A stretch of 62,727 nt of DNA, filler included, from Rhabdomonas costata (taxonomy: Eukaryota), in assembly GCA_019059605.1 (NCBI GenBank). It is 46 parts of 46 records of this genome, joined end to end, with 100 filler letters (N's around TTAATTAATTAA, not from the genome) between each part and the next. Parts side by side here need not be neighbours in the genome. Positions count along the whole stretch, not along the records: positions 27,318 to 28,581 come from JAHMHO010021349.1; positions 28,682 to 29,947 come from JAHMHO010021350.1; 44 more parts are not named here. One strand, 5' to 3'. Below are positions 2,524 to 50,500 of this stretch, piece after piece (positions within the stretch are counted from its first letter, which is position 1; each line of letters begins with the position of its first letter). A model generated the notes under the pieces. It was not told the origin of the DNA and ran no database searches. It saw only the letters and a list, made by a program, of their open reading frames with translations. Made by a program: the position numbers and the translations under genes.

Positions 2524-3204
2524 GCAATCGCCCCGTTCTGTTTAGCTGCTTGCGCTTTGGGTGGGCATGCAATGGTTCGCTGACGGAAAGTATGACAACC
2601 TACTCCGTTGTGATCATCTTTTGCCAACCCACAANNNNNNNNNNNNNNNNNNNNNNNNNNNNNNNNNNNNNNNNNNNNTTAATTAATTAANNNNNNNNNN
2701 NNNNNNNNNNNNNNNNNNNNNNNNNNNNNNNNNNGTGTGGGTGTGTTTGGGGGGTGGTGTTACGCGAAAACGACACAACACATTGCATGAAAATCAGAAG
2801 CCACCCACCAAAGGTGCGATAGGGACCAATTTGACACTGCGCAATCAGATCTCTTATCACCTGAAGCAGAAGCAGCGAAGAGTGAAGGAAGGGATGGGGG
2901 GCTCCGCCCCTCTTCTCCACCATGAAAGACTAAGCAGCCCAACTGACCATGCCGCTTGATCCCCCTAAGCTCCTTGGGCCAAAAAGACACAAAGGTTCAC
3001 AAAAGCACGACAGGGACTGGGGGCGATACCCCCTTCCTTGGTTCCAGGTTGCACCCTAACGCACTAAGTCTTCCAATCAACCAAAAGAATATGAGCCCCC
3101 CCCCTGCACTGTGCATCACCATCTGTACTAGGACACTGAGGGTGGTGGTGTATAAGAAAGCTTATATATGTGTCCCCAGTTTCGAGAAATGAATTTTCGC
3201 ACAC

Positions 3205-3942
3205 CTGAACGTCATGGAGATAGGTGATCGATGCTTCGCGGTTGTGCTTTCCCACAACAGTCACCAGGCCAGGCTCAACTTGCCTTGCCCCTATCGCAGC
3301 CTCGTGCCGGTCGACATACTGAACATCCACCGCAGTACCGAACTCCACCAGAACTTCTCGCTCGTCGGGATAACACGATAGCTCATGAAGACTGTAGCCC
3401 GACAACCCGGACACCTCATACAGGGTCCGCGGCCCACCCAAAGCGATAAAGTTATTGAGGACACCGGGGTTTGTGGTAAACGAGGTCAGGCTGTAGAAGA
3501 AGATCCGAGGAGCCCCGCCCTTGACGGACTCCTTTTCTCCACATTCCGCTCGGAAAGCCTTCACTCCAGAAACCCGGAATCTCCCCGGAAGGCAGCGCAG
3601 GCCTTTCTGCACCAGCTTGGCGAAGGGCAGAGCGTCGCGGAACCTCGGATGTGCTCTGTTGGTCGTCAGGTGTCTCAGAACATAGCACATCACCGTGCCC
3701 GTATAGCTTCGGATGGCTGCGATGCAGTCGACGCTCACTGCAGCACGGACGTCCATGGAGGCCTTCTCGATGGCCCAGCGGAGGCAATCCTGGAGGCAGT
3801 TCTCCCCATGGGTGCTGGCCGACTTGAAATCAAAAGTGAGGATTCCTCTTGTTGGATGACGAAACTGCACCCCGTGCAGCATTCGAGCAGCTTCGAGCAG
3901 CGGAAGCAGGGGGACTGCGTCGAGAATCGCCTGCAACTCCAT
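3205..3942 (-). CDS. Mono-ADP-ribosyltransferase, R-S-E (ARTC/toxin-like) clade; probably the first exon of a longer gene
   Basis: Ordered motifs AAIRSYT, GLRCLP, AFR131, LTS154FT, RTLYEV and SCYPDE194RE196VL. The ATG follows an in-frame TAG and a TTTTCTCCTTGCAG acceptor. A CAG|GTGTGC donor lies at 3204; the unspliced ORF runs on to 3064. Confidence 0.85.
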
Positions 3943-4641
3943 GTGCTGTTTTTTGAGCTAATGAATGATTACTGAATGCTGCAAGGAGAAAACCCCACAC
4001 ANNNNNNNNNNNNNNNNNNNNNNNNNNNNNNNNNNNNNNNNNNNNTTAATTAATTAANNNNNNNNNNNNNNNNNNNNNNNNNNNNNNNNNNNNNNNNNNN
4101 NTGTGGTTTGTAGTAGTTCGTGAGAAAGGAGGGGGGGGCATGACATAAGGATACCATGTCGATTTTCAGCTTCCGTTTGTCAGTTTTTAAGGGCGCAGCG
4201 CGGTCAGAAAGAAACACTAAGCTTGTTGGCGCAACGGACATTCGGGTGTTGGGGTGGTGGTGAGGGTCACGGCCACCGCATGGAAATGGAAGCGGTATCG
4301 ATTCGATGTCCAAGTTCTCGCAAAGATCGACAGAAGCAGGAAGGGAGGTTTTAAACAGCTGCCTCGCCTCAATGGAAACTCTCGGTTTACACCCGAGCAA
4401 CTCCAGGGAGGCGGAAAAACGGAGGTCCGAAAGTCTATAATGGCTGAAAAAGCCGCGAAAAACGCCCCCGTGCATCGAATAGCCGCGAGAGTGAGCACCT
4501 GCACGACGTGATTGATGCTTCCCCTTCCTGAGCTGAGTGGCTATGGTGCACTTTAGGTGGTTTCAACAATGATTTCTTTTCATCGTTGCTTGTGTTGCGC
4601 CTTTGCCTTAGAAGGTACCTGAGGTACTAAATAACTTTCAG

Positions 4642-27317: not shown

Positions 27318-27403
27318 CTGTACTCATTTCTATTTAGAAAGTACATTTTAGTATTTTCATCATCAAAATTCAATATTTGTTTACAGTGTTCACAACGATT
27401 CAT
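27318..27403 (-). CDS. 5' part of a small ORF with CxxC (MNRCEHCKQILNFDDENTKMYFLNRNEY...), truncated by the contig end
   Basis: The ATG at 27403 is divergent from the ATG at 27428. The frame is open to the contig edge in very AT-rich DNA. Confidence 0.6.
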
Positions 27404-27427
27404 TTATTATATACTGTTATAATATAA
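27404..27427. promoter_or_regulatory. 24-bp AT-rich quasi-palindromic divergent intergenic region (putative bidirectional promoter)
   Basis: CAT-TTATTATATACTGTTATAATATAA-ATG; both strands read ...TAAATG into a start codon. Confidence 0.45.
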
Positions 27428-27658
27428 ATGAACCTTGAACTAATATACGAAAATGAATTAGATGAAAATGAATTAGTAGAGCAAAGTACAAAACAAATAA
27501 CAGAACAAGACAAAAGATTAAAAGAGATTCTTGAAAAACTTTATGAAGTTGAACATAAAATAGACGATATTTTCAAAAATTTATGTGAAGTTGGTTCAAA
27601 AATTGGAAACATATATACAGTATTAAATGATATTGACAAATGTATTCAATTACGGTAA
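27428..27658 (+). CDS. Small acidic coiled-coil protein (76 aa), virus-like contig
   Basis: Intronless ORF in AT-rich DNA with a heptad pattern (LKEILEKLYEVEHKIDDIFKNL) and tight gene packing. Confidence 0.7.
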   Translation: MNLELIYENELDENELVEQSTKQITEQDKRLKEILEKLYEVEHKIDDIFKNLCEVGSKIGNIYTVLNDIDKCIQLR

Positions 27659-27682
27659 CAATAAATTTCTCAGTATATTATA

Positions 27683-27931
27683 ATGGACTACTACACAATG
27701 TCAGATTTAGTCGAAAACCTAAAAATAATGATTGCTTTTAAAGAGCAAGAAGCTATGAAATTACAATTAGAATCTAATAACGATCTAAACACAAACATTA
27801 AAGTGAATAACTTGTTTTATGAAATCAACGAACTTAAGACGCAACTTACATATCATGAGAACCTAATAGCTGATACAATGATGAGCAAATGCACAAATTG
27901 TTGTAATGGTTGTTGTTGGTGGAAGAATTAA
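27683..27931 (+). CDS. Small coiled-coil protein with a Cys-rich C-terminus (82 aa), virus-like contig
   Basis: Intronless ORF starting 24 nt after the previous stop; ends CTNCCNGCCWWKN. Confidence 0.7.
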   Translation: MDYYTMSDLVENLKIMIAFKEQEAMKLQLESNNDLNTNIKVNNLFYEINELKTQLTYHENLIADTMMSKCTNCCNGCCWWKN

Positions 27932-27958
27932 ATTATTTTAATATTGAATAATTTAATT
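27926..27958. terminator. AT-rich hairpin between convergent ORFs (putative 3'-end/polyadenylation signal)
   Basis: AATTAAATTATT (27926-37) pairs perfectly with AATAATTTAATT (27947-58) around a 9-nt loop, filling the space between the two stop codons. Confidence 0.5.
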
Positions 27959-28321
27959 TTAGTCTAGTATTTTATTTAATTCATCAAATTTTTTTATAAA
28001 TCTGCTCATTAGTGCTTCAATTTTATCTTTTAATACGGTGTATTCACCTTCATATTGTTCAAATCTTCTTACTGAATCAGATTTAATGTAATTACAACAT
28101 CGTTCGCAATAAAAATCAGATGTAGGGCGGCCTCTATAATTATAACCGAATATTTCGCTATCTTCTGATGCATTTTTATCTGAAAATATTTTGAATTCTT
28201 TATTATCTATCATATAAACTGATGAACAATGAAAACAGTATCTTACTTTACATGTCGTACAATAGAAACTATCGTTGATGTTAACACATTTATTACATAA
28301 CGGACAGTGAATTATAATCAT
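27959..28321 (-). CDS. Cys-rich zinc-finger-like protein (120 aa), virus-like contig
   Basis: Four CxxC pairs (CPLC, CTTC, CFHC, CERC) and a C-terminal helix; intronless. Confidence 0.75.
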   Translation of the reverse strand: MIIIHCPLCNKCVNINDSFYCTTCKVRYCFHCSSVYMIDNKEFKIFSDKNASEDSEIFGYNYRGRPTSDFYCERCCNYIKSDSVRRFEQYEGEYTVLKDKIEALMSRFIKKFDELNKILD

Positions 28322-28358
28322 TATAATAATACTATATTTTAATAATTTAAGTTTCTTC

Positions 28359-28580
28359 TTATTGAAGTGGAATAATAAATTCGGTTGAACATTTACAAAT
28401 ACCTAATGATACACCATCCGACGGCTCTATCTTTTGTTTTTTATTATTAATATACTCATTAACATTATGTTTTATGTCATCTAACTTGCGCATTGCATCA
28501 TATGCTATATCACGTTTTGTTTGGTGTATATAATCTTCAATATCTTTATCGTTTTTAATATTATCAAGATGAACATAAAG
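28359..28580 (-). CDS. 3' part of an ORF (LYVHLDNIKNDKDIEDYIHQ...ICKCSTEFIIPLQ*), virus-like contig
   Basis: 74 codons including the stop, open from the contig edge in AT-rich DNA, ending 37 nt before the next ATG. Confidence 0.65.
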   Translation of the reverse strand, partial: LYVHLDNIKNDKDIEDYIHQTKRDIAYDAMRKLDDIKHNVNEYINNKKQKIEPSDGVSLGICKCSTEFIIPLQ

Positions 28581-28699
28581 ANNNNNNNNNNNNNNNNNNN
28601 NNNNNNNNNNNNNNNNNNNNNNNNNTTAATTAATTAANNNNNNNNNNNNNNNNNNNNNNNNNNNNNNNNNNNNNNNNNNNNGGGTGGTGGTGGGTGGTA

Positions 28700-47579: not shown

Positions 47580-50500
47580 TAATAGCGGACTCACAAGAAA
47601 CAAAGAATACGCGAGTGGACAGGGAAGGGACCGCGGTGAAACGGCGAAGAAGATGCGAACACGTGGAACAAATAAACAAGCAAACTAGCGAACAAGCAAA
47701 CAAACNNNNNNNNNNNNNNNNNNNNNNNNNNNNNNNNNNNNNNNNNNNNTTAATTAATTAANNNNNNNNNNNNNNNNNNNNNNNNNNNNNNNNNNNNNNN
47801 NNNNNGGGTTTGGTGTCGGAACGCGGGGTCCACAGGTCTTCGGGTTGCCCTACTTGTGGCAGCGTGGCGCTCTAAAGTCGGACTGCCACCATGGGCGGAG
47901 GGAAGCATGTGCCTGGCGCCGGAGAGCGTCGTGGACGACGCGAGTCGGTATCGGAGCTGTGGTGTTTTGCGTCGTGGGGCCCGAGGGCCCTTCAGCGCGA
48001 CGATATTGCCATCTGGGCAGATGGCACGCTCTCTTTAAGCAGGCTGTGTCTTCGTGCCGCGTGCCGCGGTTCCTGACCAGGAGCATTTGGTCAGGTGCTT
48101 CCCCTCCGTGTCGCACTGGACGCCGCAGTGGTGGCGGCAGGTTCCTTCTTCGATGCATGGAAGGCCCAGCTTCTAGCATCCATGCCAGAGATCCGTGGAA
48201 CTGACTTGGAGCAGATCCAAGGAATGGATCCTGTGGGCCAGCTGATCGCGTGCGGGGACAGAAGATATAGTAGGCGTCCCGTCATCCCCCAGGCTAGCAA
48301 AGTATCGCGCTAAGCTGCCTCGTGGAGCTCAGGTGTCAGGACATGCATGGAGGTGAGGCTCTGGTCGTGGCACAATCGGCTTTGTTTTCCCACACGGCTT
48401 CGCGTAGAATAGAGCGGCTCTGGCAATTTCCACATTCAGCGTTGTTGGCTTGTTCTGCTGCTGAAGAATGCGGTTGCTGATGAGCATCACCAAACAGGCG
48501 GTGGCCACAGTTGCCCGGGTGATGTCCGTGTTTTCTGCCAAGGTTGGCCTGCAGACGAGTGAGTGGAAGCCAGATGATGGTCTGGAGAGCGTCCATTCAT
48601 CTCGTGTCGTTGTCGTTGCAATCGGAAATGCGCTAGGCCAAGCATGAAGTTTCCACGTAGCATCCCTTTCTTTGGATCGGCGGGCACGCGGAAAAGGTTT
48701 GTGGAATCGCCCTTCCGCAAAAGATATTCACTTGCTGTCCTCTCCTCAAGCCCTACCCATGCCAGAAAGGGCTTAATAATGGCTCGAACAAATGATGTAA
48801 TCATTAATCAATGCCGGACATAGTCGTGAAAAAATGATGGATCGTCCAAGGGGCAAGTCCCTTCTACAACGCCAAGAATAAAGACCCTTTCATCTTTGAG
48901 AGATGGGAAATGGAACTTCAAAAAATGGATAAATCGCGACGCTGAGCCATTGATCCTATTATTTGCACTGATCCTTCATTCACACTTTCACGGTATTGGT
49001 TTCGTGGCACTGAAAGCATAGCTTGAAGGCCACACAACAGAGTACCGCGCACAACAAGGGCACCCACACAANNNNNNNNNNNNNNNNNNNNNNNNNNNNN
49101 NNNNNNNNNNNNNNNTTAATTAATTAANNNNNNNNNNNNNNNNNNNNNNNNNNNNNNNNNNNNNNNNNNNNGTGGTTTTGGCTATTCAATAATCAATATC
49201 ATCTCATCATGTACAGCCTTCCCAACGCTACTTCTGACGGCTGTACATGATGAGATGATATTGATTATTGAATAGCCAAAAGTGAGCCTAAACTACGACA
49301 AAAAATTGCAGATCAAATGTGTGTTTGATTTTCTTTTGATTCAGTGTTACTGAGTTATATGAAATGCGGTGATGCTATTCTTATCATGCTTTTTAAGTTT
49401 TACATTCTTTTTTGCATTTTTAAATCAGATACATTTGAAAGCATAAGACAAGTGATAATTATGTTGACGAGTTTAGTGCATCTGTGGAAACAAACCTGAT
49501 GTTGTGAGTGTACTGGTATTATTATTCCATCACCAGTGATCTCTTCACGCCACACGTATGCTCTCCAGTCATTTCACTTTCTGATTGTGTCTTTGATTGA
49601 TCCTTTTGTGCGAAAACTGCCGATATATTCAGAGCCACCGTAATATTCACCAACCTGAACCTGTGAAAAAATAATTTTGTCGCTTGCATAAAAGGCACTG
49701 ATTGAAATAAAAACCACGAAACAACAGATTTTTTGGTAGCAATACATTATGAAAAACGCTGATGATCTTGTCTAGGAAAAACGCTTACGGAACAAGTAGT
49801 CCACTGGCTACACACGGCCACACGTCACACGGTAAAACAGAAGAACATTGCACATTGCAAACAAAAATCACATACAGAAAGCTTTGTCAATTCATCATAT
49901 AACAGACAAAACATTAAAGTGGTTGAGTATTTTGGAACTGCTGAGTTATCAAATGCGTTTTTATGTATAGGATAGTTATAAAGGTGCTTATACCGTATCT
50001 TAAAATTGAACGAATCAAATAAAACCGATCTTAGCCAGACTGAAGTGTGTGGCATATCAGGGAGTTTATCATTGGAATACGGCAAGACGTTTTCCTTTAT
50101 ATGCTCTCAAAATTGTTATTTCCTTTTCCCAAATTTTTTGCTTGAACGAAACTCGATAACTGGGTTGAAGTTTTCTTCCGAGAGAGCACCTCATTTTTTT
50201 CTTGGAGCTCTTCAGAAGAGCGGAACCTGAGCTCTGCACCATCCTGATGTGTGGGAAAGACCTTGAGTTGCAAGAAAGTGTGTGATGCATTGCGGCAGAT
50301 GCCGTGGTTGTTTACATGTAACTGCAACTGCTTCTGCGCATCAATTGATAATAGACATGGAAGCCAAGAGGATGATGTTTTCAAGTGAAGCACTGCACCA
50401 CACACTTTCTTGCAACTCAAGGTCTTTCCAACACACANNNNNNNNNNNNNNNNNNNNNNNNNNNNNNNNNNNNNNNNNNNNTTAATTAATTAANNNNNNN

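Follow-up and report, generated by a model that had tools for sequence, protein, structure and literature searches.

An AT-rich, gene-dense contig in the Rhabdomonas costata assembly: a possible fragment of a eukaryotic DNA virus encoding a finger-plus-helix protein

Introduction

What kind of genome does a strongly AT-rich contig come from, when it stands among contigs of balanced composition in the assembly of a protist, and what do its genes encode? We address this question for contig JAHMHO010021349.1 of Rhabdomonas costata (GCA_019059605.1), which occupies positions 27318-28581 of the window analysed here. The window is a stretch of 62,727 bases, in which 46 contigs of 1260-1267 bp each are joined by N/TTAATTAATTAA spacers, and it represents more than one locus. 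A sequence-only reading had described the AT-rich contig as an intronless, tightly packed row of tiny genes and as a candidate virus, free or integrated into the protist genome. Our analysis shows that the contig is foreign to its neighbours and carries real genes, one of which founds a small protein family. We tentatively assign the contig to an undescribed DNA virus of a eukaryote or to a virus-like element, an assignment that comes close to being probable but stops short of it.

Results

Composition and gene layout

The contig of 1264 bp is compositionally foreign to the other contigs in the window. With 25.4% G+C it lies 7.7 standard deviations below the mean of the remaining 45 contigs (52.0%, standard deviation 3.5), the next lowest of which have 37.8% and 45.3%, and the sharp AT-richness noticed in the sequence-only reading is thus borne out. 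Five open reading frames (ORFs) lie on both strands (Table 1), separated by spacers of 24, 24, 27 and 37 nt, with a coding fraction of 0.91 and a switch of orientation at two of the four gene junctions. The description as intronless, densely packed genes of mixed orientation was therefore accurate, although the count of five needs qualification: only three ORFs are complete (76, 82 and 120 aa), and ORF1 and ORF5 are truncated by the contig ends. Every visible start codon (four) is ATG and every visible stop codon (four) is TAA. Upstream of each start, the 24-nt stretch contains one G only and hence no Shine-Dalgarno core, in agreement with the earlier observation that such signals are missing.

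The ORFs of the AT-rich contig are real genes, as their length, their tiling and their codon periodicity, all above chance, and the existence of ORF4 homologues demonstrate. The longest stop-to-stop frame spans 147 codons, and at least 120 codons were reached in only 8 of 2000 mononucleotide shuffles. Non-overlapping ORFs cover 0.895 of the contig, compared with 0.762 +/- 0.059 in dinucleotide shuffles, one of 1000 of which equalled this value. Purines make up 0.60-0.69 of first codon positions across the ORFs, and G+C is higher at the first than at the third codon position in four of the five.

The reading frames also bear on the genetic code. TGA is absent in frame from 383 codons, as opposed to 43 occurrences off frame, and both tryptophan codons, which are located in ORF3, are TGG, which argues against codes that read TGA as tryptophan, such as those of mollicutes and many mitochondria. 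TAA ends four frames, and the C-termini of the ORF4 relatives fall close to the position of the TAA of ORF4 in the alignment; this agreement is evidence against ciliate nuclear codes in which TAA specifies glutamine.

The ORF4 family

ORF4 is the best-characterised gene of the contig and the founder of a small finger-plus-helix family. An exhaustive HMMER search with ORF4 against 1.84 billion representatives gave nine matches at E <= 0.001, of which six (P0003-7 and P0010, E 8.8e-24 to 6.3e-5) are true relatives, while P0008, P0009 and P0011 were set aside as spurious, being low-complexity or repeat proteins. A profile search brought in three further relatives (P0012-14), giving nine homologues in total. 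ORF4 is 39-46% identical to its five full-length homologues along most of its length. None of the nine relatives has a protein name; they carry the source label 'ena' only, and their contigs measure 531-1772 bp. A word-index protein search returned no candidate for ORF4 and, for P0003, only P0003 itself (531-bp contig).

Sequence and alignments define four CxxC pairs in ORF4 (C6/C9, C21/C24, C29/C32 and C72/C75), with the family spacing C-x2-C-x11-C-x2-C-x4-C-x2-C-x39-C-x2-C. C24 and C75 do not vary across the 10 aligned sequences, and C21, C29 and C32 hardly do. A C-terminal helix follows the finger in six of these sequences, and P0010, P0013 and P0014 stop directly after the finger. The Pfam family PF25080 (zf_RING-like) matches ORF4 with 23 bits and E 8.1e-5, under its gathering cut-off of 27 bits; three of the 10 sequences of the family match it at E <= 0.01, and P0012 carries it as a precomputed label. 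A full-text literature search for 'PF25080' found no paper.

Two family members are unusual in their own right. P0014 is chimeric: about 45 residues at its N-terminus, similar to a GIY-YIG nuclease (Pfam E 0.0048), take the place of the finger's first CxxC pair. P0007 has a helix near-identical to that of P0006 and has lost most of the zinc ligands (for example MYSERC versus MYCEQC); it may represent a paralogue in decay or an error in gene calling.

Predicted fold and role of ORF4

The AlphaFold2 model of ORF4, built from the alignment (pLDDT 89.7), consists of a beta-rich finger (residues 1-72) and a single helix (residues 73-119). The natural finger-only member P0010 was modelled with a pLDDT of 84, and a comparison of this model with 48,161 PDB chains gave a top 50 composed mostly of PHD, FYVE and Rab-effector fingers, all at Z <= 4.8; among the best alignments is that with the ARID5 PHD finger (Z 4.8, rmsd 3.5 over 55 residues). 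The best match of a PDB profile search was likewise a PHD finger, that of MLL3, at E 0.37, and Foldseek found no PDB match for the family models at E <= 0.001 (best E 0.27). The fold search with the whole ORF4 model (VIA) was dominated by the long helix. Taken alone, this helix aligns with many coiled coils, including that of TRIM75, at a Z of about 6, a value that for one long helix reflects a common arrangement according to the search tool's own note.

The eight-cysteine spacing of ORF4 fits the cross-brace pattern of PHD, RING and FYVE fingers, which belong mainly to eukaryotes and eukaryotic viruses. Like these fingers, ORF4 has four CxxC pairs, which supply eight ligands at a PHD-like spacing; unlike PHD fingers, its ligands are all cysteines rather than C4HC3, and an insert of 39 residues with a beta-hairpin separates ligand pairs 3 and 4. 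With Z < 5, Foldseek E >= 0.27 and 23 bits, membership of ORF4 in the PHD, FYVE or RING classes or in PF25080 is unproven. We read ORF4 as probably combining a cross-brace finger of the PHD/FYVE/RING class, with cysteines as its only ligands, and a coiled coil, and we place it in no named family. The finger presumably binds two zinc ions through its four CxxC pairs in cross-brace order. We infer that the helix of 47 residues may pair to form a coiled coil; ORF4 would then be a bivalent adaptor for docking onto a partner from the host or the virus. The junction of a finger to one long helix recalls TRIM-type RING/B-box/coiled-coil proteins and EEA1-type coiled-coil-FYVE dimers, from which ORF4 differs by its length of only 120 aa, by having no further domain and no sequence relation, and by a dimer state that is presumed. 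A homodimer prediction scored 0.00 in two runs, in which the partner's own fold was also uncertain, and is evidence neither way.

The products had been described as coiled-coil or CxxC-rich, and as unrecognisable. A coiled coil is supported by the model for ORF4, by sub-threshold matches only for ORF2, and by eye only for ORF3 and ORF5. "Unrecognisable" was too strong for ORF4.

Signals at gene ends and starts

At the convergent ORF3/ORF4 junction, the only one of its kind in the contig, an A/T hairpin covers both stop codons. Its perfect 12-bp arms (27926-27937 and 27947-27958) consist of A and T only, and the contig has no other perfect stem of at least 9 bp. Of 1000 shuffled versions, 78 reached a maximal stem length of 10 bp, and a single one reached 13 bp. 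The RNA is predicted to form a stem of 15 pairs closed by a loop of 7 nt, at -13.1 kcal/mol (z -4.14; equalled by none of 200 shuffles). No G+C-rich terminator of bacterial type was found in the contig. Hairpin-forming 3' motifs are described as a key feature of Mimiviridae in the excerpted text of PMC6163669, and hairpin-forming palindromes end the transcripts of the AT-rich Pithovirus according to that of PMC4402537. ORF3 and ORF4 would, in a similar way, share a single A/T hairpin as their 3' end.

The divergent genes ORF1 and ORF2 are separated by a spacer that is itself part of a palindrome. The arms of this palindrome measure 15 nt, are 87% complementary and stand 4 nt apart; its fold gave z -1.9 and -2.7 (equalled by 11 and 4 of 200 shuffles). 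This palindromic spacer of 24 nt may act as a compact bidirectional promoter. The starts directly follow A/T-only spacers, so that leaders would be tiny and promoters are proposed to reach into the neighbouring gene. A poxvirus-type TAAATG start is present at ORF1 and ORF2 only, which share this one spacer. TCTA is the late promoter in virophages of CroV and mimiviruses; no TCTA was found close upstream of the starts, the nearest lying at -59.

The remaining ORFs

ORF1 and ORF5 have no family match in Pfam, PHROGs or NCBIfam, and ORF2 has sub-threshold matches only, all of them to coiled-coil families in the same three collections. For ORF3, Pfam gave no match even at E <= 10. The products of ORF2, ORF3 and ORF5 are acidic and hydrophilic and have no transmembrane character. 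ORF3 ends, after a helical body, in a dense cysteine/tryptophan tail, CTNCCNGCCWWKN (27893-27928, plus strand), which could be a metal-binding or acylation site. ORF1 was considered as a paralogue of ORF4 and rejected: the likeness comprises 7-10 residues around CEHC, and hhalign aligned 7 columns at a probability of 11%.

Table 1. Positions of the features discussed, counted along the whole window.
Feature	Position	Strand	Description
Whole AT-rich contig	27318-28581		25.4% G+C, 91% coding
ORF1	27318-27403	-	first 28 codons (MNRCEHC...), one CxxC; cut by left contig end
ORF2	27428-27658	+	76 aa, acidic (pI 4.5), hydrophilic, TAA stop
ORF3	27683-27931	+	82 aa, acidic, C-terminal cysteine cluster CTNCCNGCCWW, TAA stop
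ORF4	27959-28321	-	120 aa, eight-cysteine finger and long helix, TAA stop
ORF5	28359-28581	-	last 73 codons, cut by right contig end; C-terminus ...GICKCSTEFIIPLQ; TAA stop
ORF1/ORF2 divergent palindrome	27399-27432		spans the 24-nt spacer 27404-27427 and both start codons (CATTTAT...ATAAATG)
A/T hairpin at convergent ORF3/ORF4 junction	27924-27960		covers both stop codons
Examples of G/T-only or C/A-only contig ends	60098-60120, 2735-2760, 8200-8215		

Contig ends and the other contigs of the window

A G/T-only run at the 5' end, a C/A-only run at the 3' end, or both, mark 43 of the 46 contigs; the AT-rich contig is among the three that have neither. One contig opens with the sequence of the universal whole-genome-amplification primer, TGTGTTGGGTGTGTTTGG(K10)NN, and this universal primer is given as 5'-TGTGTTGGGTGTGTTTGGKKKKKKKKKKNN-3' in the excerpted methods of PMC10781638. 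The primer-derived contig ends seem to have been left untrimmed in the assembly, which points to an assembly from degenerate-primer, low-input amplification. Stray DNA is frequent in amplifications of this kind.

None of 10 long frames from the host-like contigs was matched in Pfam at E <= 0.01. One such frame of 297 codons (3067-3957, minus strand) resembles an ADP-ribosyltransferase, with an Atlas score of 0.95 against clusters that carry PF01129/PF03496; its top PDB match is a bacterial exoenzyme (E 0.09), and Pfam is without a match at E <= 0.01. The contig with the second-lowest G+C content (49172-50437, 37.8%) holds short, overlapping frames of at most 107 aa, looks non-coding and shows no resemblance to the contig of 25% G+C.

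Discussion

We infer that the AT-rich contig may be viral. It would be a piece of another genome, AT-rich and densely packed with genes, that came along with the protist sample, and its source would be an undescribed large eukaryotic DNA virus, or a small virophage- or polinton-like element, free rather than integrated. The contig itself would then represent an accessory-type block of small, acidic and soluble proteins. Two features hint at a eukaryotic virus: the PHD/FYVE-like cross-brace finger of ORF4, and the A/T hairpin on the convergent junction. The extreme closeness of the intronless genes and their changes of orientation point the same way, as does the ORF4 family, which is diverse and has its members on short, low-coverage contigs only. 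Switches of orientation are common in large DNA viruses of eukaryotes and seldom seen in phages.

A considerable body of results weighs against this assignment. The five products match no Pfam family of the hallmark genes sought (major capsid protein, PolB, packaging ATPase and VLTF3-like factor) even at E <= 10, which agrees with the sequence-only reading that no hallmark gene is present; 1.26 kb is too small for one, and a contig of this size without a hallmark gene carries no strong claim. All eight IMG/VR scans (with ORF4, A2, ORF2, ORF3, A4, ORF5, P0005 and P0006, where A2 and A4 are 3-sequence alignments of the ORF4 family) and both JGI metagenome scans (with A2 and A4) were negative, in a procedure that, like our scans of prokaryote genomes, relies on a few exact peptide patterns and misses distant kin. 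The BFVD structures gave no match at E <= 0.001, and the search of the ORFs against viral sets, which had been proposed as a check, produced no viral relative. The Atlas neighbours nearest to ORF4, under the lead threshold, are three clusters of hypothetical proteins that are mostly labelled Uroviricota (0.86-0.88), and the early regions of phages, too, typically hold tiny genes in clusters. The early promoter motif of Mimiviridae, AAAATTGA, was absent in exact form from the 150 nt upstream of all four starts, and the one copy that the contig has is within ORF4. Three of the four starts have AGTAT at -11/-12; this shared motif was rejected, as 695 of 5000 shuffles were as good and it is not above chance. 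The regions 3' of ORF2 and ORF5 have no significant hairpin (z 0.65 and -0.88), which leaves one of three intergenic 3' regions with such a structure. The PHD/FYVE assignment of the finger is a lead, its matches being weak (Z < 5), and the orphan status of ORF2, ORF3 and ORF5, which have no relative in IMG/VR or the phage records, is provisional, the exhaustive search having covered ORF4 alone. Taken together, the viral inference stands as far as foreign composition, packed real genes, finger and hairpin carry it, and finds no support from a hallmark gene, IMG/VR, BFVD or AAAATTGA.

The contig could instead be a fragment, with early or accessory tiny genes, of a phage whose host, an AT-rich bacterium (of the Bacteroidota, for example), translates without Shine-Dalgarno sequences; it would have been brought in with prey, an epibiont or reagent contamination. 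We consider this unlikely, even though genes of 76-120 aa, such narrow spacers and 91% coding density are typical of phage accessory regions, the Uroviricota clusters are the nearest to ORF4, CxxC mini-proteins are common in phages, and the GIY-YIG domain, a piece of which P0014 carries, is frequent there as well. Against a phage speak the IMG/VR scans and the direct comparison with 50,697 phage records, in which blastn with the contig and tblastn with ORF2-5 and P0014 gave nothing below E 0.8, a chance match to two records of one Caulobacter phage. PHROGs gave no significant match (best E 0.0039, coiled-coil-like). Bacterial-type terminators are absent, sigma-70-like sites are not in excess (8 versus 11.5 expected), and the 24-nt divergent spacer cannot fit two bacterial promoters plus leaders. 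The changes of orientation at two of four junctions and the likeness of the ORF4 finger to eukaryote-type PHD/FYVE fingers are further points against a phage. Beyond phages, tblastn against 72,556 plasmids gave nothing, and Pfam and NCBIfam contained nothing at threshold, with no NCBIfam match near its cut-off.

An AT-rich cellular or organellar genome, be it the protist's own mitochondrion, its plastid-derived compartment or a nucleomorph, a compact AT-rich eukaryotic parasite such as a microsporidian, or an AT-rich bacterial endosymbiont, is an equally doubtful source. Where a host has about 50% G+C, its organelles, nucleomorphs and endosymbionts commonly have about 25% and very short spacers, nucleomorphs are rich in orphan genes, PHD/FYVE-like fingers are native to eukaryotic genomes, and the failure of all 10 long host frames in Pfam leaves room for a nucleomorph- or parasite-bearing host. 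However, five genes in a row include none with a housekeeping, ribosomal or respiratory function, the contig contains no tRNA and no Rfam family, and the acidic, soluble products are unlike the basic or hydrophobic ORFs of organelles. The codon evidence set out above, from TGG tryptophans to TAA stops, opposes the TGA-reassigned and ciliate codes, and divergent genes 24 nt apart are too near for ordinary nuclear promoters. Both scans, with A2 and A4, of prokaryote genomes (one for each of 185,579 species) were negative within the reach of such pattern-limited scans, and the occurrence of the nine family members on contigs of at most 1772 bp is unlike high-copy organelle DNA. None of the outcomes named beforehand as refuting a virus (a match to a bacterium, an organelle or an AT-rich eukaryotic contaminant) was seen in the comparisons made here, which covered bacteria, phages, plasmids, tRNA and Rfam families and a TGA-tryptophan code.

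That the contig is an endogenous viral element within a protist chromosome, the integrated form allowed for by the sequence-only reading, is highly improbable. The sole point in its favour is that the contig was co-assembled with protist DNA. Both contig ends are AT-rich coding sequence with no DNA of about 52% G+C attached, so that integration is unsupported; moreover, all three complete ORFs have kept their frames intact and end cleanly in TAA, and the G+C content shows no drift towards the host value.

To return to a eukaryotic virus or virus-like element, which remains our preferred source, the closest likeness among large viruses is to the accessory regions of AT-rich Nucleocytoviricota such as Mimiviridae and Pithovirus-like viruses. 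These regions share with the contig a G+C content of about 25%, dense, intronless small genes on both strands, and paralogous families of zinc-finger mini-proteins. Hairpins form at their gene 3' ends according to the excerpts of PMC4402537 and PMC6163669, and the A/T-only hairpin of the contig would be a candidate counterpart. The contig differs in that it lacks a hallmark gene and matches no known member in sequence or structure; it lacks, upstream of its four starts, the motif AAAATTGA, given as the early promoter of Mimiviridae in the excerpt of PMC6163669, and it has a hairpin at one of its three intergenic 3' regions only. Spacers of 24-37 nt are also shorter than those of mimivirus. Virophages and polinton-like viruses are similar in being AT-rich and compact, with short spacers, mixed orientation and many small orphan genes, but the contig is without their capsid, ATPase, protease and integrase and has no IMG/VR or BFVD match.

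A more specific version of this proposal, which we consider rather improbable and offer as speculation, is an undescribed AT-rich lineage of giant viruses that infects the protist. Such a lineage would have an expanded family of miniature all-cysteine proteins that join a PHD/FYVE-like finger to a coiled coil and act as adaptors, with the nine relatives as paralogues or orthologues, near-leaderless mRNAs, palindromic bidirectional promoters of 24 nt, and hairpin 3' ends in the manner of Mimiviridae without the promoter of that family.

Conclusions

Non-host DNA is present in the Rhabdomonas costata assembly and should be binned out ahead of annotation of the protist. If the virus reading is true, the contig marks a virus-host pair within a low-input protist genome. 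A small family of finger-plus-helix proteins, structurally confident, would then join the orphan genes of giant viruses, and the use of hairpins to direct 3' ends would extend past the lineages that use the AAAATTGA promoter.

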